In this document: positions 2,670 through 25,402 of the stretch, piece after piece
How the letters are laid out: each line of letters opens with the position of its first letter
How positions within the stretch are numbered: position 1 is the stretch's first letter
NCBI GenBank assembly: GCA_964469945.1
Contig: CAYYBU010000001.1
Coordinates: forward strand, 1-25,929
Direction of reading: 5' to 3'
Origin: an uncultured Planctomycetaceae bacterium
GTDB lineage: Bacteria; Planctomycetota; Planctomycetia; Pirellulales; Thermoguttaceae
Length of the DNA stretch: 25,929 nt
Notes under the pieces: generated by a model
What the model was told of the DNA's origin: nothing
What the model saw: only the letters and a program-made list of their open reading frames with translations
Database searches by the model: none
Program-made: the position numbers and the translations under genes

Positions 2670-2699
2670 TTGAAAACAGGCCAGGGCGTGTGTTAAGGT
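2670..2699 (+). promoter_or_regulatory. Putative sigma70 promoter TTGAAA-N18-TAAGGT with extended -10 TG
   Basis: TTGAAA 2670-2675, TG 2691-2692, TAAGGT 2694-2699, immediately upstream of leader motif copy 1. Confidence 0.55.
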
Positions 2700-2713: not shown

Positions 2714-2795
2714 GGTATCCGCAGAGCCTGATTCGACAGGTATCTCCAAGAGCCCGCCGCTGGAACTGATTTCCGGCGGCGGGCTCTTTTTGTTT
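2714..2795 (+). promoter_or_regulatory. Structured leader RNA motif, copy 1 (candidate attenuator/antitermination site)
   Basis: GGTAT-ccgc-AGAGCCTG-attcga-CAGGTATCT-ccaa-GAGCCC...ctgat loop...GGGCTC-TTTTTTGTT; the same fixed elements in the same order recur at 11116-11202. Confidence 0.7.
2748..2795 (+). terminator. Intrinsic terminator upstream of the first cluster gene
   Basis: 18-bp stem aagagcccgccgctggaa/ttccggcggcgggctctt (one G-U), 5-nt loop ctgat, followed by a U-tract. Confidence 0.85.
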
Positions 2796-2848: not shown

Positions 2849-3262
2849 ATGCTTGCACCCTTCCTGGTGGACGAAATCCGCCGCCTGCTGGCGGAAGACA
2901 AACTGAGCTATCGCAAGATCGCCCAGCGCCTGGGCGTCAACCGCGCTACGGTCGGGGCCATCGCGGCGGGGCGACGGCCCGATTACGAGCGGCTTCGCCA
3001 TGTCCGCCACGACGATCCGCTGGAACCTACCGGACCGCCCGCGCGCTGCCCGCAGTGCGGTGGCATGGTCTATCTTCCCTGCCGTTTGTGCCACCTGCGG
3101 AGCACGATGCCGCGGCCGGCCGAGCCACGACGCCGCGACAGGGTTGGAGAAATCGTGCAATTGCAGTTGAAGGAGGAACACCGCCTGCGCTACGAAGAGG
3201 TTCGTGCCCAACGGCAACGCGCTGAAATGGAAGCTTGCCTGGAACACATGAGACTGTCCTAG
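2849..3262 (+). CDS. HTH plus Zn-ribbon protein, putative transcriptional regulator, 137 aa
   Basis: ATG 2849 with GGAG SD; HTH-like LSYRKIAQRLGVNRATVGAIA; CPQCG...CRLC four-Cys motif. Confidence 0.8.
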   Translation: MLAPFLVDEIRRLLAEDKLSYRKIAQRLGVNRATVGAIAAGRRPDYERLRHVRHDDPLEPTGPPARCPQCGGMVYLPCRLCHLRSTMPRPAEPRRRDRVGEIVQLQLKEEHRLRYEEVRAQRQRAEMEACLEHMRLS

Positions 3263-3281: not shown

Positions 3282-3369
3282 TTGTCGGGTGGGTCGAGCG
3301 GAGCGAATTCCACCCGAACGCGGGCAACTAATCCATGGTGGGGCTCGCTCCGCTCGACCCACCCGACAA
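3282..3369. repeat. REP-like palindrome, family C variant (GTCGGGTGGGTCGAGCGGAGCGA)
   Basis: ttgtcgggtgggtcgagcggagcga...tcgctccgctcgacccacccgacaa inverted arms; related to 9175-9258. Confidence 0.85.
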
Positions 3370-5007: not shown

Positions 5008-5012
5008 GCATC

Positions 5013-5068
5013 GTGTCCGGCACACGCCGTGTGCCGTTGGCCGGCCGCACACGGAGTGTGCCGGATAC
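5013..5068. repeat. Palindromic repeat family B (GTATCCGGCACACTCCGTGTGCCG ... CGGCACACGGAGTGTGCCGGATAC)
   Basis: Inverted arms with a few mismatches; further copies at 5773-5828, 17829-17883 and a half copy at 10831-10848. Confidence 0.85.
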
Positions 5069-5192
5069 TTTGACGCTCGACCATTTCCTCTTCCCCGGCG
5101 GCCGTGCTGGAAAACAGGGTGCATTGCCCGAGGGCTCCCCCGCTCCAGCCGCGCCGCCGGAAGAGGAATTTTTTCCACAAGGAGAATAGGCG

Positions 5193-5759: not shown

Positions 5760-5772
5760 GAAGGCTTTGAAC

Positions 5773-5828
5773 GTATCCGGCACACTCCGTGTGCCGTTGG
5801 CCGGCGGCACACGGAGTGTGCCGGATAC
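5773..5828. repeat. Palindromic repeat family B
   Basis: gtatccggcacactccgtgtgccg / cggcacacggagtgtgccggatac perfect inverted arms. Confidence 0.9.
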
Positions 5829-5858
5829 ATGGAGAGGCGAGATCAAGGAGAACGTGCC

Positions 5859-7034
5859 ATGCCTTTGCTCGACGTGACCGTGGAATGCCCGGTCTTCGAT
5901 TCCTTCCGCGTCCAGCAAGTGGCGGGAATGTTCGACGTGCCGCTGTCGCAACGGGCGACGCAACGCTTCCGCGTCGAACTGCCGGCCGATCTCCGCGGCG
6001 CGGATTGGCGCGTGGGGCTGATCGTGGGGCCGTCCGGCAGCGGCAAGAGCACGATCGCCCGCAACATGTTCGGACCCAGCGTCTATCGTCCCAAGGAGTG
6101 GGCCGGCGACCGCGCCGTGATCGACGGCTTGGGGGAACATCCCATCAAGGACATCACCGGACTGTTTACGGCCGTCGGCTTCAGTTCGCCGCCCAGTTGG
6201 GTGAAGCCGTACCACGTGTTGAGCAACGGCGAGCAGTTCCGTTGCGATCTGGCCCGGGCGCTGGCCCAATGCGGCCGCGGGGAGACCGCTGAGGATCGCC
6301 GCGAAGGGGACAGTCCCAGTTTCGGCGTCGCCGCCGGAGACGCGGAACGAAACTCGGGACAGTCCCCACTGGTGGTCTTTGACGAATTCACCAGCGTCGT
6401 GGACCGCAACGTGGCCCGGGTGGTTTCGGCGGCGACCGCCAAGGCGATTCGCGGCGGCCGCATTGCCGGGCGTTTCGTGGCCGTCACCTGCCATTACGAC
6501 GTCACCGACTGGCTGCAACCCGATTGGGTCATCGACATGGCCACCGCCACTTTTACCCGGAGGTGTCTTCCACGACCGCCGATCGAGTTGGAAGTCTTTC
6601 GCAGCCGGCGCAGTGCGTGGTCGCTGTTTGCGCGCCATCACTATTTGAGCGGCGCGCTGAGCACGGCGGCACGCTGCTTCCTGGCCCTGTGGGGCGAGCG
6701 GCCGGTGGCCTTCTGCGCCACCGTGTCGCTGATCGGGCGCAAGAAGCGTTGGCGTCTGAGCCGCCTGGTCACGCTGCCCGACTACCAGGGCATCGGCATC
6801 GGCATGGCGGTGGCCGAGGCCGTGGCCGACCTGCACTTGCAGGAAGGCCACCGCTTGAACGTGACGGCCAGCCACCCGGCGCTGTTGGCGCACTGCCGCC
6901 GCTCGCCGCGCTGGCGGGCGGTGCAAGTGCGCAAGACCGGTTCGCAGATGGGGACGAACTTCGTGAAGAACTACCGCAGCTCGGCGGGCCGGGCCGTGGT
7001 CTCCTTCGAGTACCTGGGACACAAGGAGTCATAA
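5859..7034 (+). CDS. ABC-type ATPase fused to a GNAT acetyltransferase, 391 aa
   Basis: ATG 5859 with AAGGAG SD (preferred over 5829, which abuts the repeat); Walker A GPSGSGKS, signature LSNGEQFR, Walker B LVVFDEF; GNAT motif [15 protein letters not shown]. Confidence 0.9.
6304..6367. repeat. GGGACAGTCCC-type palindromic repeat inserted in frame in the ATPase gene
   Basis: aaggggacagtcccagtttc...gaaactcgggacagtcccc; encodes [22 protein letters not shown] between the ABC signature and Walker B. Confidence 0.75.
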
Positions 7035-9174: not shown

Positions 9175-9258
9175 GTAGGGTGGGACGAGCGCAGCGAAGG
9201 CCCACCAGGATTTGCGAGAGGTCGATGGTGGGCCGTCGCTTCGCTCGTCCCACCCTAC
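9175..9258. repeat. REP-like GTAG palindrome, family C
   Basis: gtagggtgggacgagcgcagcgaaggcccacc...ggtgggccgtcgcttcgctcgtcccaccctac. Confidence 0.9.
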
Positions 9259-9285: not shown

Positions 9286-10677
9286 ATGGAACCGCAGCCA
9301 CATTCTCATGACACCACCGCCGCGCCGCCCGATCCGCGCTTGGCCGGCTTGCAGCGGCACTTGTCCGAGGCCTTCGACGACCTGTGGGACAGCTTCGTCG
9401 ATCGCGACGAGGCGCTGTACGACGTCGATGGAATGCCTTGGGCCCGCCTCGACAACGACACCATGCCGGGCAAGACGGCCGGCGTGGTCTTCACCCAGGT
9501 GCAACTGGCCGAGATCCGCGGCGAGTGCCGCGCCCTGGCCGTGAGCAACCCGTTTGCCATCAACGGCCACGAGAACCGCGTCAGCTACATTGTCGGCAGC
9601 GGCCACAACTACCAGGCGTCGGCCCGCCGCGGCGGCGCCGCCGGCGACGACCTGCCGGCCGAGGTCCAGACCGTGCTGGACGAGTTCGTCCGCGTCAACA
9701 AGTGGCACCAGCGGCAGCAGGAAATCGTCCGCCGCAAGGACCGCGACGGCGAATGCTTCCTGCGCCTGTTCGCCGCGCCGGACGGCGCCACGCGGGTGCG
9801 GTTCGTCGAGCCGGGCCAGGTGGCCGCGCCCCCCGAGCGCGCCGGCGACCCGACGGCGGCCTTCGGCATTCAAACCGCCGCCAACGACGTGGAGAATGTC
9901 CGCGGCTACTGGATCGACGGCCGGCTGGTCGGCGCCGAAGACGTCCAGCACCGCAAGGAAAACGTGGACGCCAACGTGCGCCGCGGGCTGCCGCTGTTCT
10001 TTCCCGTCCGGCAAAACCTCCGTCGCGCCGAAAAGCTCTTGCGCAACATGAGCGCCGTGGCCGAGATCCAGTCGGCGATCGCCTTGATCCGCAAGCATCA
10101 GGCGACCAGCGGCGCCGCCTTGGACCAGTTCGTGCAAGGCCAGGCCGATTTCAACGTGACCAGCCCCGTGACCGCGCGGACCAGCTACTTCCGCCGTTAT
10201 GCGCCGGGCACGATCCTGGACACCATGGCGGGCACGGATTACGAGTTCCCGGCGTCGGCCATCAATGCGGCCAGCTACGTGGCCGTGTTGCAGGCCGAGC
10301 TGCGCGCCATTGCCGCCCGGCTGGTGATGCCGGAGTTCATGCTCAGCAGCGACGCCAGCAACGCCAACTACAGCTCGACGATGGTGGCCGAGGGACCGGC
10401 GGTGAAGATGTTCGACCGCTTGCAGCACGACATGATCGAGGACGATCTGGAATTGCTCTGGCGCGTGGTGGGCCACGCGGTAGCGGTGGGCCGGCTGCCG
10501 GCCGAGGCGCTCGCGGCGGTGGACATTCGCGCCGTGCCGCCGACACTGGCGGTGCGCGATCGGCTGCGCGACGCCCAGGCCGACCAGATCCTGCTCCGCA
10601 ACGGCGCCATGTCGCCGGCGACGATGGCCATGCGCCACGGGCTGGAGCCGGCCGATGAGCAGCAGGCGGGCTTATAA
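9286..10677 (+). CDS. Phage portal protein, lambda-like family, 463 aa
   Basis: Position after terL; RDGECFLR, VRRGLP, LSSDASNANYSS motifs; AAGGAG SD. Confidence 0.9.
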   Translation: MEPQPHSHDTTAAPPDPRLAGLQRHLSEAFDDLWDSFVDRDEALYDVDGMPWARLDNDTMPGKTAGVVFTQVQLAEIRGECRALAVSNPFAINGHENRVSYIVGSGHNYQASARRGGAAGDDLPAEVQTVLDEFVRVNKWHQRQQEIVRRKDRDGECFLRLFAAPDGATRVRFVEPGQVAAPPERAGDPTAAFGIQTAANDVENVRGYWIDGRLVGAEDVQHRKENVDANVRRGLPLFFPVRQNLRRAEKLLRNMSAVAEIQSAIALIRKHQATSGAALDQFVQGQADFNVTSPVTARTSYFRRYAPGTILDTMAGTDYEFPASAINAASYVAVLQAELRAIAARLVMPEFMLSSDASNANYSSTMVAEGPAVKMFDRLQHDMIEDDLELLWRVVGHAVAVGRLPAEALAAVDIRAVPPTLAVRDRLRDAQADQILLRNGAMSPATMAMRHGLEPADEQQAGL

Positions 10678-10740
10678 CCGCGACCGGGAAGGACTGGCAG
10701 AGCCAGTGGCGCCCGGCCGGTACGATTCCGAAGGAATCGT

Positions 10741-10848
10741 TGTAGGGAACGCCCTCCGTGGCGTTCCGGACGTACCGGTACAAACGGAACGCCACGGAGG
10801 GCGTTCCCTACAGGAGTATGCCGGCGGCGGACGGAGTGTGCCGGATAC
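10741..10848. repeat. Family A palindrome (10741-10812) plus half copy of family B (10831-10848)
   Basis: Perfect 28-bp inverted arms, then acggagtgtgccggatac. Confidence 0.9.
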
Positions 10849-10878
10849 GTCATGGGAAAAATGGCTCAAAAAGAAAGC

Positions 10879-10907
10879 TTGAAAACCGACCGGCCTTGAG
10901 GTATCTT
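10879..10907 (+). promoter_or_regulatory. Putative internal sigma70 promoter TTGAAA-N17-TATCTT
   Basis: TTGAAA 10879-10884, TATCTT 10902-10907; same CTTGAAAAC context as the promoter at 2670; ATG follows 8 nt after the -10 box. Confidence 0.55.
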
Positions 10908-10915
10908 TTTTCTCG

Positions 10916-11098
10916 ATGATCACGCACGGCACAACACCTGCAAACGCGAAGAAAGTGGCGCAGCTCCACGCGGCGCTGGCCGAGCTGTTGGCCGACACGC
11001 TGCGGCGCGGCTTCTTCGGCACGGCCGCCGTGGAACTGAACATTCAGGACGGGACCATCCAGCATATCCGCCGCATGGTGGATCGGATCGAGAAGTAA
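10916..11098 (+). CDS. Small basic 60-aa protein, DUF2292/YezD-like
   Basis: LRRGFFGTAAVELNIQDGTIQHIRR resembles the (F/Y)G-V-x-(I/L)-xx-DG-xxxx-I pattern; no SD, probably leaderless. Confidence 0.65.
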   Translation: MITHGTTPANAKKVAQLHAALAELLADTLRRGFFGTAAVELNIQDGTIQHIRRMVDRIEK

Positions 11099-11115
11099 CG
11101 AGACGAAACTGAATT

Positions 11116-11202
11116 GGTATTGGCGAGAGCCTGTCGCGCGCCGACAGGTATCTGGCCGAGCCCACCGCGAGCCCCGATGGCTCCAGGTGGGCTTTTTTTG
11201 TT
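11116..11202 (+). promoter_or_regulatory. Structured leader RNA motif, copy 2
   Basis: GGTAT-tggcg-AGAGCCTG-tcgcgcgccga-CAGGTATCT-ggcc-GAGCCC...ccgat loop...GGGCT-TTTTTTGTT. Confidence 0.7.
11158..11202 (+). terminator. Intrinsic terminator directly upstream of the capsid genes
   Basis: agcccacc/ggtgggct outer stem, gagcc/ggctc inner stem, ccgat loop, T7 tract. Confidence 0.8.
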
Positions 11203-11242: not shown

Positions 11243-12187
11243 ATGACAGAAACGCTCCAGGAATTTTTCGATTCGCGCGGCGTGGCCGTGCGCGTGGACC
11301 GCCCGGCGGGCGTGATCCGGGGAGTGAAAATCCTCGGCCTCCGTTCGCGCAACGGCCGCAGCTATCTGCCCGAGGCGCTCGTGCAGGCCGCCGCGCTGTA
11401 TGAAGACGCCAAGGTCAACGTGAACCATCCCAAGGGCAACCCGGGCGGACCGCGCGACTACCAGGACCGCATCGGCGTGATTCGCAACGTGGCGGTGCAA
11501 GGCGAGGGCTTGTTCGCCGATTTTCATTTCAACCCCAAGCACGGCCTGGCGGAGCAGCTTCTCTGGGACGCCGAACATGCCCCGGAGAACGTCGGCTTCT
11601 CCCACAATGTCGAAGCCCGCACGGTCCGCCGCGGCCAGGACGTGGTCGTGGAGGCCATCACGCGGGTGCAGAGCGTGGACTTGGTGGCCGATCCGGCCAC
11701 GACGCGCGGGCTGTTCGAGGGGCAAGCCGGCCGGGAAACGCCCGCCGCCGGCGCCCGTGCGGCCCTCTCCCTCGATGACCTGAAACGCGACTACCCCGAA
11801 CTGGTCGAGGCGCTGTGCCAGGAACAGGCCGCCGAGTTGCGGCGGTTGGAAGGCGAACTGACGCGGCTGACGGAAGCGGCGTCGCTCTGCCGCAAGCAGG
11901 AAACCGCGCGGAAGCTGCTGCGCGAATTCCACTTGCCGGAGTGCGATGCGACCGACCCGCGGGCCGCGGCCATCACCAGCCCGCGGTTCATGCACACCTT
12001 GTTGGCGGCGGCCGACGAACCGGCCATGCGCGAACTGGTCGAAGAGCGGGCCCGGCTGGTCCGCACGCTGGGCGGCGCCGAGGCGGCGCAGGCCGCGGCG
12101 TGCGGCAGGCCGCTCTCGCGCGATCAACACCTCGTCGACGGCGCGGGGCCGTGCGACATGCGAAGCTTCGTGGCAGCGATTACCTGA
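11243..12187 (+). CDS. Prohead protease with C-terminal scaffold region, 314 aa
   Basis: ATG 11243 after AAAGG SD (ORF-track start 11114 lies in the leader); VNVNHP (His), VGFSH (Ser), VQSVDLVADPAT as in HK97/U35-like maturation proteases; helical C-terminus. Confidence 0.8.
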   Translation: MTETLQEFFDSRGVAVRVDRPAGVIRGVKILGLRSRNGRSYLPEALVQAAALYEDAKVNVNHPKGNPGGPRDYQDRIGVIRNVAVQGEGLFADFHFNPKHGLAEQLLWDAEHAPENVGFSHNVEARTVRRGQDVVVEAITRVQSVDLVADPATTRGLFEGQAGRETPAAGARAALSLDDLKRDYPELVEALCQEQAAELRRLEGELTRLTEAASLCRKQETARKLLREFHLPECDATDPRAAAITSPRFMHTLLAAADEPAMRELVEERARLVRTLGGAEAAQAAACGRPLSRDQHLVDGAGPCDMRSFVAAIT

Positions 12188-12228: not shown

Positions 12229-12720
12229 ATGAGTGACAAGATGCGTTGGCGATATGGCGACACCAATCCCGTGGTGGCGAACGTGGCGGCGACGACCGTG
12301 ATCGAAATCGGCGATCTGCTCTGGCAGGACGCCGACAACGCCAAGCCGGCCGCGATGTTGCCCGACCGCGGCAGCAAGGCGGCCAATCAAGAGGCCTTCG
12401 CGGCGAATTTCCTGGGCGTGGCCATGACGCGCAGCCGCCAGGGGGAGATTGCGCCGGTGCGCGTGGCGACCACGGGCGTGATCGAATTGGACTGCCCGAG
12501 CAGCACCTTCGAGCTGGGCGACCTGATGAGCGTGGACAGCGCGGCCGCGGGCGCGCCGCTGTTGAACCAGCAGGCGATCAAGACGGCGGCGAGCCGTTAT
12601 GCCGTTGGCCGCGTGGCCAAGCGGCAGCCGTTGGCCGGCACCGGCGTGTTGGTCGACATCCGTTCGACCATCATGACGGGCGGCGTTCTCGGCGGCCGCA
12701 GCAGCGGCAGCGGCGTGTAA
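12229..12720 (+). CDS. Head decoration / capsid cement protein (DUF2190-like), 163 aa
   Basis: ATG 12229 with GGAG SD; IEIGDLL...FLGVAM...VRVATTGVIEL...GDL pattern; lies between protease and capsid. Confidence 0.75.
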   Translation: MSDKMRWRYGDTNPVVANVAATTVIEIGDLLWQDADNAKPAAMLPDRGSKAANQEAFAANFLGVAMTRSRQGEIAPVRVATTGVIELDCPSSTFELGDLMSVDSAAAGAPLLNQQAIKTAASRYAVGRVAKRQPLAGTGVLVDIRSTIMTGGVLGGRSSGSGV

Positions 12721-12770
12721 CGCGCCGCGGCGCAGAACCCCAGGACCCATTATCCAAGGAGAAGTCCAAC

Positions 12771-13964
12771 GTGACCGCGATCAAATACCGCGAACTGAAA
12801 CAGATGTACCAGAGCAACGGCCCGGAGCGGACGGTCAAGCACCTCCGCGAGGCGTTGCGGGAAGGGGAGTTGAAGGCGGAGGATTTCAGCCTGCGCGAGT
12901 TGGCCGAGGCGACCGTGGGCCCCGAGTGGGTCAAACGGCTCGACCCGCGCAGCGACGACGGCGTCCCTTTGCTCGAGGCCGGCGACGCCGTGGACGTGAC
13001 CGCCTTTGCCAACATTACCGGACAGATCATCTACTCGACCATCCTGGAGGCCTACACGCAAGAGGCCTTCGTGGTGTCGAAGTTGGTCGATACGGTGCCC
13101 ACGCGCTTCGACGGCGAGAAGATTCCCGGCATCGGCCGCGTGCGCGACGAAGTGGCCGAGGTGCGGCCCGGGATGCCGTATCCCAGCCTCGGGCTGAGCG
13201 AGGACTACATCGAGACCCCCTCGACCACCAAGCACGGTTTCATCGTGCCGGTGACGCGGGAGGCGATCTTCTTCGATCGCACGCACCTGATCGTTCAGCG
13301 GGCGTCGGAGGTCGGCGAAGTGCTGGGCGTGAACAAGGAGAAGCGGTTGTTGGACCTGGTGCTCGGCATCACCAACAACTACAAGTGGAAAGGCGCCAGC
13401 TACAAGACCTATTATGGCTCCGCCGACAACGGGCCGTGGGTGAACGAACTCGGCGAGGAACTGGTCGACTGGACGGACATCGACGCGGCCGAGCAACTGT
13501 TCGCCGAGATCCTCGATCCGTCCACCGGGGAACCGGTGCTGGTGTACCCCAACACGGTGCTGGTGATGCCGGCCTACAGCCATGCGGCGAACCGCGTGCT
13601 CAAGGCCACGGAAATCATCTACGACAGCGCGGCCACCGCGGACGGCCACACCATGACGGCGGCCGCCAACCCCTTGGATTCCTATCGGGTGGCGGAGAGC
13701 CGGCTGGCCTATCGCCGCATCATCGCCGCCGGCATCGCGCCGGAGGAGGCCAAGCGGTGGTGGTTCCTGGGCGACTTCAAGAAGGCCTTCGCCTACATGG
13801 AGAACTGGCCCATCACGGTTACCCAAGCGCGGACCAACAGCGAGGCCGAGTTCAACCAGGACATCGTGCTGCGCTTCAAGGCCAGCGAGCGCGGGGCCGC
13901 CGCGGTCATTAATCCCCGCTACGTCGTCAAGAGCACGGGCGTCAGCCGGGGCAGCGGCCAATAG
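12771..13964 (+). CDS. Major capsid protein, HK97 fold (Mu gpT-like), 397 aa
   Basis: GTG 12771 with AAGGAG SD; size and position; FANITGQII, TTKHGFIVPVTREAIFFD, PNTVLVMP, WFLGDFKKAF, ERGAAAVINPRYVVK. Confidence 0.85.
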   Translation: MTAIKYRELKQMYQSNGPERTVKHLREALREGELKAEDFSLRELAEATVGPEWVKRLDPRSDDGVPLLEAGDAVDVTAFANITGQIIYSTILEAYTQEAFVVSKLVDTVPTRFDGEKIPGIGRVRDEVAEVRPGMPYPSLGLSEDYIETPSTTKHGFIVPVTREAIFFDRTHLIVQRASEVGEVLGVNKEKRLLDLVLGITNNYKWKGASYKTYYGSADNGPWVNELGEELVDWTDIDAAEQLFAEILDPSTGEPVLVYPNTVLVMPAYSHAANRVLKATEIIYDSAATADGHTMTAAANPLDSYRVAESRLAYRRIIAAGIAPEEAKRWWFLGDFKKAFAYMENWPITVTQARTNSEAEFNQDIVLRFKASERGAAAVINPRYVVKSTGVSRGSGQ

Positions 13965-14037: not shown

Positions 14038-14205
14038 GGCGTCGGAAGACAATTAACTACCGACTTCGTTCTGTAGGGAACGCCCTCCGTGGCGTTCCGT
14101 GACGTGCGAGAAAGGCCTTTTTCCGAGGCACGGAACGCCACGGAGGGCGTTCCCTACAAGGACGCTTTCATCGTCGATTGCGGTAGTTAATTGTCTTCCA
14201 ACGCC
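14038..14205. mobile_element. MITE-like element with 25-bp TIRs and TTA target-site duplication, containing a family A palindrome
   Basis: TIRs ggcgtcggaagacaattaactaccg (14038-14062) and cggtagttaattgtcttccaacgcc (14181-14205), one mismatch; TTA at 14035-14037 and 14206-14208. Confidence 0.7.
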
Positions 14206-17427: not shown

Positions 17428-17829
17428 ATGAATCTGGCTCAAGTCATCCATCAGCGTTGGGCGGCGGCCGCGGCGTTGAACGCCCTGCTGCCGGCCGCGC
17501 GGGTCTATACCGGCATGAGCGTGGATCCAACCGTGCCGTTCGCCACCATCAACAAGGAAAGCGAACGTCCGGCGGCATACCTCAATGACGGCTCGTCGGT
17601 GGCGACGGTCGGCTTGCGCATCGACGTGTTCCACGCTCAGCATGACGCCGCGGCCGCGATCGTGGCGCAGATCAAGGCCGTCTTCGACCGCAGCGCGTTC
17701 GCCCTGGCCGGCAGCGATAAGGTCGTCGACGTGCTGTGGGTCAACGACTTCGAGCGGCAAACCGCCGACAGCGTTTGGCAATGCACCTGCGAGTTGAATT
17801 GCACCGTGCAGTTGGCCGCGGGCCAGTAG
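17428..17829 (+). CDS. Tail terminator / tail completion protein (DUF3168-like), 133 aa
   Basis: ALNALLPAARVYTG...PFATI...LRIDVF...AAAIVAQIKAVFD pattern; directly before the tail tube gene. Confidence 0.75.
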   Translation: MNLAQVIHQRWAAAAALNALLPAARVYTGMSVDPTVPFATINKESERPAAYLNDGSSVATVGLRIDVFHAQHDAAAAIVAQIKAVFDRSAFALAGSDKVVDVLWVNDFERQTADSVWQCTCELNCTVQLAAGQ

Positions 17830-17883
17830 TATCCGGCACACTCCGTGTGCCGTTGCGGGCGGCACACGGAGTGTGCCGGATAC
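17829..17883. repeat. Palindromic repeat family B
   Basis: gtatccggcacactccgtgtgccg...cggcacacggagtgtgccggatac overlapping the stop codon. Confidence 0.9.
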
Positions 17884-17927
17884 ATTGAAACGACTTCACT
17901 ATCAACCTTAGCAAGGAGAAGCATGGC

Positions 17928-25314: not shown

Positions 25315-25402
25315 GACGCGATCAAAGGGGTCGGGACGCGATCAAAGGGGTCGGAAGTCGTTTCACAAGCGCGATCAAAGGGGTCGGAAGTCGTTTCACA
25401 AG
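25314..25402. repeat. Tandem direct repeats of a GGGGTCGGAAGTCGTTT-type element
   Basis: 20-bp unit twice (25314-25353), 33-bp unit twice (25337-25402); inverted partner aaacgactcccgacc at 25506-25520. Confidence 0.8.

Follow-up and report, generated by a model that had tools for sequence, protein, structure and literature searches.

A 60-residue protein and a symmetric leader RNA at the head of a Pirellulales capsid operon: a candidate antitermination cassette

Described antitermination systems and the ORF60 locus

In phage lambda one protein, N, switches all nut-bearing operons on after a delay. A different design is found in BglG/SacY/LicT with their ribonucleic antiterminator (RAT) targets, in HutP and in ANTAR proteins, where termination is the default and an alternative hairpin shares a few nucleotides (nt) with the 5' arm of the terminator. 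Antitermination is also an established form of control in the clusters of gene transfer agents (GTAs). In the Caulobacter GTA the first gene, gtaT, is directly followed by a terminator that GafZ lets the polymerase pass (PMC11150451), and the Q21-like BrrG does likewise in the Bartonella GTA (bioRxiv 10.1101/2024.11.20.624540). In this paper we describe a locus that can be compared with each of these systems. It lies in a 25,929-nt stretch of DNA from an uncultured Planctomycetaceae bacterium (GenBank assembly GCA_964469945.1, contig CAYYBU010000001.1), which as a whole we call the window and in which position 1 is the first letter. The subject is ORF60, an open reading frame (ORF) of 60 amino acids (aa) that may be the protein half of a regulatory cassette heading the capsid operon of a phage-derived, probably domesticated, Pirellulales cluster. 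The locus is laid out as follows.

10862..10873, + strand: element 5' of the ORF60 promoter (TGGCTCAAAAAG; consensus GG.CCAAAAAG), about 5 nt upstream of the -35 box
10879..10907, + strand: sigma-70-like promoter of ORF60; TTGAAA 10879-10884, 17-nt spacer, TATCTT 10902-10907
10916..11098, + strand: ORF60, 60 aa; ATG 8 nt past the -10 box, TAA 11096-11098
11116..11162, + strand: leader RNA motif, copy B; covariance-model match of 75.9 bits, together with alignment, covariation and folds
11158..11199, + strand: intrinsic terminator B; GC-rich stem starting with the second GAGCC, then T7 at 11193-11199
11243..12187, + strand: first gene past terminator B, 314 aa, phrog_29592, in the position of a head protease or scaffold gene; Shine-Dalgarno (SD) sequence aggaaaggaaagg
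12246..13964, + strand: major capsid protein gene; Phage_capsid_4 in the C-terminal half

An initial annotation, made from the letters of the window, had described a TTGAAA-17-TATCTT promoter, an ATG 8 nt further on with no SD sequence, a 60-aa ORF and an RNA motif 17 nt further on, and this description is exact to the base, the motif starting at 11116.

Under the mechanism that we propose, a sharpened version of the core idea of the initial annotation, the promoter with its A-rich upstream element would start transcription at or adjoining the ATG, and ORF60 would be made from a short leaderless mRNA ending at 11158-11199. The two GGUAUC-N5-GAGCC copies would then pair antiparallel into a long, two-fold symmetric hairpin before the terminator. 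The outermost helix of this hairpin would take up the GAGCC that also opens the terminator stem and, left alone, the terminator would win. ORF60, probably as a dimer, would bind the symmetric RNA and hold the antiterminator hairpin, letting RNA polymerase read into the head genes. The same action might take place in trans at leaders without an ORF, which would be that of the packaging operon (2714-2794) and those of other operons in other genomes. The binding of RNA, the direction of the effect and the action in trans are all deduced from comparisons of sequence. We put the probability that ORF60 is a trans-acting RNA-binding antiterminator working by this mechanism at roughly 40%, and we lean towards the broader statement that it is a regulator of some kind tied to the leader. 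The initial annotation had also raised positive feedback and bistable expression. This would need a promoter dependent on a product made past the terminator, for example the helix-turn-helix (HTH)/zinc-ribbon protein described below, and is conjecture.

The comparison with lambda N and nut shows several likenesses. Both involve a small basic protein that is encoded between a promoter and the first terminator, a hairpin-bearing RNA element in the same transcript, and copies of the site at several operons. In contrast to N, ORF60 has no sequence or fold similarity to that protein and no arginine-rich N-terminal motif. The ORF60 leader motif is unlike nut, and no boxA was identified, although none was sought. 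Furthermore, the RNA site here lies 3' of the gene, where it adjoins the terminator and shares 5 nt with it, which suggests a local competition between hairpins rather than a processive modification of RNA polymerase.

It is this RNA design that brings the locus closer to BglG/SacY/LicT-RAT, HutP and ANTAR. The proposed default termination, the few nucleotides shared between the candidate alternative hairpin and the terminator 5' arm, the symmetric or repeated RNA target and the proposed small dimeric RNA-binding module as its stabiliser would be common to both sides. The proteins differ, since ORF60 has no CAT, ANTAR or HutP domain in Pfam, and neither NCBIfam nor a fold search gave such a domain. 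The ORF60 leader motif is also unrelated to their targets and absent from Rfam, and ORF60 is encoded inside the leader itself, from an apparently leaderless start. On this analogy the ORF60 system resembles lambda N in its logic and BglG/LicT in its RNA design.

The GTA regulators GafYZ and BrrG share with our locus a phage-derived cluster, a terminator right after the first gene or leader, a need for read-through to reach the structural genes, and several coordinated loci. The differences lie in the molecules. GafZ and BrrG are Q-like factors that load at DNA sites in or near the promoter, whereas here the promoter spacer is not conserved and the conserved element lies in the RNA beside the terminator. 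An upstream element, GG.CCAAAAAG, is conserved in our case, and ORF60, at 60 aa, has no fold match to Q proteins. Antitermination control of GTA clusters is thus already known (PMC11150451; bioRxiv 10.1101/2024.11.20.624540); the ORF60 family and its RNA motif are undescribed in the libraries that we searched.

ORF60: gene, promoter and protein family

ORF60 is a true gene under purifying selection. Its protein (MITHGTTPANAKKVAQLHAALAELLADTLRRGFFGTAAVELNIQDGTIQHIRRMVDRIEK) has a mass of 6.6 kDa, a pI (isoelectric point) of 9.7 and a net charge of about +1.8, and its G+C content at codon positions 1/2/3 (0.64/0.41/0.84) is like that of the neighbouring genes. We found 297 homologues in a protein database clustered at 90%, nearly all of them 59-62 aa long, and the family amounts to 339 clusters at 50% identity. 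Relatives are present in 104 + 32 species-representative genomes, that is in at least 136 Pirellulales species, and all carriers are Planctomycetota apart from a few mis-binned metagenome-assembled genomes (MAGs). A tblastn search against 50,697 genomes of cultured phages gave no match. The length stays at 59-61 aa in 77 of 80 loci. Amino-acid identity ranges from 45 to 85% across more than 130 species, and the median ratio of nonsynonymous to synonymous substitution rates (dN/dS) is 0.20 over 1257 pairs. Among 34 close relatives 18 residues are invariant; family-wide, the core is reduced to G35, D45, G46, I48 and Q49, within RGFxG and QDGTIQ. Conservation extends to basic and surface residues (K12, K13, R31, R52 and R53) and to the motifs RGFFG and QDGTIQ, and on a protein of this size they would fit a binding function.

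The location of ORF60 upstream of an attenuator is also that of leader peptides, and one might ask whether it is a chance frame or a translated leader whose peptide has no function, the attenuation being mediated by the ribosome. Its conservation across species, its dN/dS and its invariant residues refute this idea, which we regard as hardly conceivable. The distance between the ORF60 stop codon and the motif, moreover, varies from 6 nt to about 1.9 kb, and the spacer often carries unrelated repeat hairpins. This excludes a coupling through ribosome position, and ribosome-coupled attenuation was rejected for the same reason. Long hairpins of simple repeats with GTGGATA, CAATGTT and GGGATTA units are found in the spacers of loci L004, L006, L009, L017, L025, L027, L031, L039 and others; those in L006 shift the motif about 1.9 kb downstream.

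The start of the gene is unusual. Between the -10 box and the ATG (10908-10915) there are only the letters ttttctcg, with no purine-rich SD sequence. In 64 of 80 loci TTGNNN-N16-18-TAnnnT ends 5-10 nt (mode 8) before the conserved ATG of ORF60, and the Lacipirellulaceae clade has TGcTATAGT, then 6 nt, then the ATG. The leaderless arrangement that the initial annotation had seen at this one locus is therefore matched by a -10-to-ATG geometry kept in two Pirellulales families. In all loci inspected the start codon is ATG, and SD-like 4-mers are rare, as in a leaderless mRNA. They precede ORF60 in 9 of 80 loci and in 4 of 32 Lacipirellulaceae loci, against 11 of 12 for the next gene. As the geometry is fixed across divergent sequences, transcription is expected to start at or adjoining the A of the ATG. 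ORF60 would then be translated without a leader, from a 5' end that we deduce from promoter geometry. The distant homologues L195 and L228 have an ordinary leader with an SD, so that the leaderless start characterises this clade rather than the family at large. Our literature search on leaderless mRNAs in Planctomycetes turned up nothing.

A single promoter match carries little weight here. Promoter-like sites number 6 in 20 kb, against 2.0 +/- 1.4 in shuffled sequence, and the ORF60 promoter match by itself is not beyond chance; it is conservation that lifts it above. The case for the promoter therefore rests on comparative data. From 49 ORF60 promoters and 22 promoter-proximal motif modules we built the consensus GG.CCAAAAAG-N5-CTTGAAA-N17-TAnnnT, which for ORF60 keeps a constant spacing to the ATG. 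The window has just two promoters of this type, each with a motif. In the consensus the spacer is not conserved, and the element GG.CCAAAAAG upstream of the -35 box is as conserved as the -35 box itself in all module promoters. The copy A promoter, which heads the packaging operon, is preceded by a weaker form of it, ATGGAAAAAT (2654-2664). The element could be an UP element or an activator site. TGGCAC-like upstream elements had suggested a sigma-54 promoter; this was rejected, as their spacing to TTGAAA is about 11 nt and not 5, and a clear -10 box is present.

The conservation of this element raises the question whether ORF60 is a small DNA-binding factor that acts there and autoregulates its regulon at initiation, the RNA motif being served by something else. 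The element matches the motif in conservation and accompanies the module in every case, and ORF60 is small, basic and probably oligomeric. The top rows of the fold search include helix-plus-hairpin DNA binders (MADS box, HU-like), although these are weak and none is significant. ORF60 has no recognisable DNA-binding fold, however, the A-tract element may be a plain UP element, and the cluster encodes a more obvious DNA binder in its HTH protein. Such a role would also leave unexplained why invariant GGUAUC/GAGCC repeats stand in a covarying hairpin beside the terminator. We consider it quite unlikely.

The protein sequence gives few hints about function. Searches with ORF60 against PHROGs, NCBIfam and Pfam found nothing significant, with DNA_Packaging_2 at E = 0.058 only. 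The initial annotation had likened the protein to DUF2292/YezD, and this likeness stands as remote homology but not as membership of the Pfam family. The PF10055 (DUF2292/YezD) model does not match the window protein even at E <= 10. When 50 diverse relatives were compared with Pfam, PF10055 came first by count, with 3 of 50 matching and a best E of 0.15. An hhalign comparison of the two families, in contrast, gives a probability of 89.7% (P = 1.8e-6) over 48 columns, nearly the full length. The input was an alignment of 50 ORF60 relatives (A2) and one of 28 YezD proteins (A4), of which 24 have a precomputed PF10055 annotation and 4 come from plasmid records, three of these being annotated as YezD/DUF2292. 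This YezD set goes back to a YezD consensus, which led to plasmid genes annotated as YezD/DUF2292; one of these seeded a database search in which all matches carried PF10055. With shallower profiles the probability falls to 76.5% (six YezD members) and 57.9% (a shallow ORF60 alignment, A1). ORF60 is probably a remote relative of YezD/DUF2292 and, by the criterion of Pfam, not a member.

Both families are about 50-60 aa long, both have a hydrophobic-G turn followed by a V-x-D/E-G-x-I/V-x-x-I hairpin motif, and members of both often open an operon as its small first gene. The surroundings differ, with YezD genes in sulfate-assimilation operons and ORF60 in phage-like head or early modules. The plasmid YezD/DUF2292 genes (L233 100-243, L236 73-228 and L235 61-243) lie directly 5' of cysH, for phosphoadenylyl-sulfate reductase, or just 3' of a gene for a sulfate ABC-transporter ATPase, as small first or linking genes of sulfur-assimilation operons. 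Our literature search found no function for YezD/DUF2292, and so the relationship gives no mechanism for ORF60.

AlphaFold2, run on a 150-sequence alignment, returned a confident model with a predicted local distance difference test score (pLDDT) of 87, consisting of a helix (8-28) and a beta-hairpin (35-57). The confident model was not accompanied by a structural relative. Foldseek against solved structures gave nothing better than E ~1.4, for a model of pLDDT 64 as for that of pLDDT 87, and a sequence profile search of the PDB gave only hairpin-motif noise. Judging from the model, a helix-plus-hairpin fold of this kind probably oligomerises.

The leader RNA and its association with ORF60

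The RNA motif is made of two units, GGUAUC-N4-6-GAGCC, in an alignment of 45 instances. In copy B, downstream of ORF60, unit 1 is GGUAUU-ggcga-GAGCC (11116-11131) and unit 2 is GGUAUC-uggcc-GAGCC (11147-11162), and an apical hairpin, P1, lies between the units at 11132-11146. Copy A has the same order, with GGUAUC at 2714-2719, GAGCC at 2724-2728, GGUAUC at 2739-2744 and GAGCC at 2750-2754. The base of P1 is formed by the first GAGCC paired with the second GGUAUC, with one bulged A, and its upper stem covaries freely, with compensatory changes in 8 of the 10 P1 pairs. The terminator stem opens with the second GAGCC, which makes up its first 5 nt.

When the RNA is cut just past the second GAGCC, all 44 of 44 parsed instances fold as one long hairpin in which the first GGUAUC pairs with the second GAGCC. 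The segments between the hexamers covary, giving 76 pairs against 59 +/- 5.4; only one of 5000 shuffles gave as many. Pairing in the outer helix amounts to 99.6%, with a nearly invariant sequence, and two sequences (L023 and L058) show a compensatory change from C-G to U-A. Since both strands read GGUAUC-N5-GAGCC, the duplex is two-fold symmetric, as would suit recognition by a homodimer. Folding of the full RNA favours the terminator state over one with the outer helix enforced, by a median of 9 kcal/mol (range 0.4-19), and thus termination should be the default. Read-through would require a positive factor. The long dyad-symmetric hairpin is a candidate antiterminator, whose outer helix may form in this competition. 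Folds, energies and covariation together support the view that the RNA is built like an antiterminator/terminator pair with termination as the default, in line with the terminator-linked leader motif of the initial annotation.

Rfam has no family at the gathering threshold in the window, and at E <= 10 the leader has chance-level matches only. Riboswitch-type sensing gained no support, as beyond the paired hexamers no conserved junction resembling a ligand pocket is seen.

The folding energies bear on a further possibility, namely that ORF60 binds the leader RNA but promotes termination. This would be a negative feedback of the TRAP/PyrR type that keeps lethal structural genes silent until some other signal arrives. 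The linkage evidence given below serves this idea as well as it serves an antiterminator, a protein translated from the short terminated transcript would be in a good position to limit read-through by negative autoregulation, and single-stranded GGUAUC repeats could be binding sites. The terminator, however, is already favoured by the median 9 kcal/mol and needs no helper, and if no positive factor intervened, the genes beyond it would stay permanently silent. We consider this very unlikely.

The association between gene and motif was followed with a covariance model built from the leader alignment. Of the first 80 loci, about 66 have motif and terminator directly 3' of ORF60. The arrangement is shared by 32 of 32 Lacipirellulaceae loci and by 20 of 22 viral contigs from metagenomes, which brings the proportion to about 88% of 134 loci. 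The co-occurrence that would be expected of the pairing suggested initially is thus found, and distant homologues are included in it. P0218 (40% identity) is found near genes for a serine integrase and a primase-like protein, in what resembles the early region of a prophage; 3' of it come a promoter of the module type, a tandem pair of motifs and an HTH gene. In P0250, too, a motif follows the gene. P0255 (35% identity) has a lambda-type portal gene on one side and, on the other, a degenerate GGCAUC/GAGCC motif with terminator. P0260 stands between the genes for a large AAA protein and an HK97-type capsid and is followed by a different repeated hexamer, GUACCC, the second copy of which again opens the terminator stem. 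P0248 is found alone, near a tyrosine integrase. At L220 10478-10682 (= L195 4316-4522) two tandem copies of motif and terminator precede an HTH gene. The DNA around them, which carries a serine integrase and a primase-like gene, looks like part of a prophage early region, and the ORF60 homologue there has a normal SD.

The homologues outside head modules and the design of a repeat plus a terminator, which has outlasted a change of the hexamer, are our best evidence that ORF60 and the attenuator work together. The homologues outside head modules also argue against a purely structural role as part of the capsid.

Such a role has nevertheless to be weighed. ORF60 could be a head-assembly or structural accessory, for instance one associated with the portal or a scaffold, whose gene happens to stand first in the head operon, while the attenuator is run by the HTH/zinc-ribbon protein, by a host factor or by a Q/GafZ-like factor. 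In its favour, ORF60 is always directly 5' of the protease/scaffold-like gene and the capsid gene, distant homologues keep the order portal - ORF60 - 292-aa protein - decoration-like protein, or ORF60 - HK97 capsid, and some loci run from ORF60 straight into the next gene with no motif. There is also a precedent in the Caulobacter GTA, where the first gene, gtaT, precedes the terminator and the antiterminator GafZ is encoded elsewhere (PMC11150451). On the other side, P0218 and P0248 sit in integrase, primase or regulatory surroundings without nearby head genes, and P0218 keeps the motif. ORF60 matches no structural family in PHROGs or Pfam, and its own promoter and leaderless start before a strong terminator would yield far more ORF60 than capsid protein, an odd outcome for a structural part. 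We regard a head-assembly role as unlikely.

Several observations weigh against ORF60 being an antiterminator. About 12% of loci keep ORF60 without a motif directly downstream. In L016, L024, L026, L028, L030, L033, L038, L050, L053, L074 and L153, ORF60 is followed by the next gene with no motif between them; where such exceptions have enough sequence (L026, L028, L050 and L153) a copy is found elsewhere in the cluster. ORF60 and the motif are parts of one conserved element, and their co-occurrence alone proves no interaction. The two sides of the outer helix are nearly invariant and covariation cannot prove this helix; a DNA site or a different binding partner could explain the invariance equally well. 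The binding of RNA by ORF60 is itself inferred, and the protein has no homology or fold match to known RNA-binding or antitermination proteins in Pfam, PHROGs, NCBIfam, the PDB or Foldseek. A constitutive promoter with an antiterminator encoded 5' of its own terminator is no obvious switch. The antiterminator could instead be the HTH/zinc-ribbon protein (2849-3262) or a host factor, and the ancestral position of ORF60 between portal and protease/capsid genes also fits a head-assembly role.

What speaks for an antiterminator that acts in trans is the presence of the module at operons without ORF60. The initial annotation had implied a second leader copy, which we find at 2670-2794, at the head of the packaging operon.

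2670..2698, + strand: promoter of leader copy A; TTGAAA 2670-2675, 17-nt spacer, TTAAGG 2693-2698
2714..2794, + strand: leader motif copy A and terminator; covariance-model match of 74.2 bits, stem 2748-2788, then a T-run
2849..3262, + strand: HTH and zinc-ribbon protein, 137 aa, first gene past terminator A; the packaging operon then runs to 10677

Here promoter, motif and terminator occur without ORF60 and the motif starts 15 nt past the -10 box. A pattern scan of species-representative genomes gave at least 119 motif matches. The few outside Planctomycetota have no terminator and look like chance. ORF60 precedes about half of the real matches, and the remaining ones have a conserved promoter 14-16 nt 5' of the first GGUAUC, as in copy A. 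These modules without an ORF precede an HTH gene, terS, terL, a portal gene or parB, but also genes unrelated to the cluster, such as those for trypsin-like proteases, a radical-SAM protein, a mannosyltransferase and proline-rich proteins of unknown function. The initial suggestion of read-through at both terminators was too narrow in its scope, as the module heads other operons too. Many targets and one ORF60 per genome fit a trans-acting factor. As the module consistently precedes ORFs of its own orientation, it is more likely to be a cis-acting leader than a free-standing small RNA gene.

The MAG JAFGFF01 (Pirellulales Zod_Metabat.1299) has at least 11 nearly identical modules, many of them exactly at contig ends (L107, L124, L128, L134, L136, L140, L146, L151, L156, L165 and L170). 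This suggests that the module belongs there to a repeated, possibly mobile, sequence.

The phage-derived cluster and its biology in Pirellulales

The window has 65% G+C and comes from a Pirellulales planctomycete close to Thermoguttaceae. Its genes run from mreB (1532-2581) and leader A through the HTH/zinc-ribbon gene (2849-3262) to genes for a trypsin-like protease, a ParB-like protein, an ATPase-GNAT fusion, TerS, TerL and a lambda-type portal (9286-10677). ORF60 with leader B, the 314-aa protein gene (11243-12187) and the capsid gene (12246-13964) follow, and 3' of the capsid gene come genes for a collagen-like fibre protein, a head-tail connector and tail-completion proteins. The window shows neither integrase nor replication genes. 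The HTH/zinc-ribbon protein has generic HTH similarity only, with no Q-like match by sequence, and is a candidate DNA-binding regulator that might be a rival or a partner of ORF60. The ATPase-GNAT fusion (5829-7034), between the ParB-like gene and the small terminase gene, has 401 aa and joins a P-loop ATPase to a GNAT acetyltransferase (phrog_11143, E = 2e-98). The capsid protein is unusually long at 572 aa, and residues 251-563 alone match Phage_capsid_4.

In loci with the head operon, which is conserved in at least 136 species, ORF60 always comes immediately before the gene for the 314-aa protein, with the capsid gene next. In many genomes the packaging operon and its separate leader copy lie at another site or in the opposite orientation. 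Eight loci have no packaging genes within 10 kb upstream (L001, L002, L004, L005, L009, L013, L020 and L022) and three have the packaging operon inverted (L032, L034 and L044). Many species thus have the phage-like cluster in pieces or in a changed order, which is also seen in domesticated elements of the GTA type. Going by the genes, it is plausible that the cluster is a GTA, given its wide vertical conservation, the split loci and the lack of lysogeny genes in view. Our literature search found no planctomycete GTA.

Several repeat families lie between the genes of the window. Palindromic repeats of the family TGTAGGGAACGCCCTCCGTGGCGTTCC and its complement form hairpins in three intergenic gaps (118-190, 10728-10813 and 14059-14169), one copy standing between the portal gene and the ORF60 promoter; the family looks like repetitive extragenic palindromes (REP) or miniature inverted-repeat transposable elements (MITE). 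A second palindromic family (GTATCCGGCACACTCCGTGTGCCG...) is found between cluster genes at 5012-5073, 5772-5833, 10820-10853 and 17829-17888, with the copy at 10820-10853 just upstream of the ORF60 promoter. A third (GTAGGGTGGGACGAGCG...) occurs at 3282-3369 and 9175-9258. Near the end of the window (25317-25402) there are tandem direct repeats with a 33-nt unit (CGCGATCAAAGGGGTCGGAAGTCGTTTCACAAG).

A bolder form of our proposal is that the ORF60 family is a new class of dimeric RNA-binding antiterminators of about 60 residues, which recognise a symmetric GGUAUC/GAGCC duplex and switch a terminator-guarded regulon that includes a GTA-like cluster. We hold this to be doubtful. If ORF60 is an antiterminator, it would add a new pair of protein family and RNA motif to transcription attenuation, with neither partner in Pfam or Rfam. 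It would also give the widespread orphan family YezD/DUF2292 a first functional lead, in the form of a testable hypothesis. The cassette is carried by three strains in culture, Aeoliella sp. SH292, Aeoliella straminimaris ICT_H6.2 and Lacipirellula limnantheis I41, which makes the antiterminator idea directly testable.

To our knowledge, gene regulation in Planctomycetota is almost unexplored. If our proposal is true, the antitermination control of GTA-like elements would extend from Alphaproteobacteria to Planctomycetota, by a mechanistically different, RNA-based route, and the cassette would show how a widely conserved cluster for phage-derived particles stays silent and then turns on.

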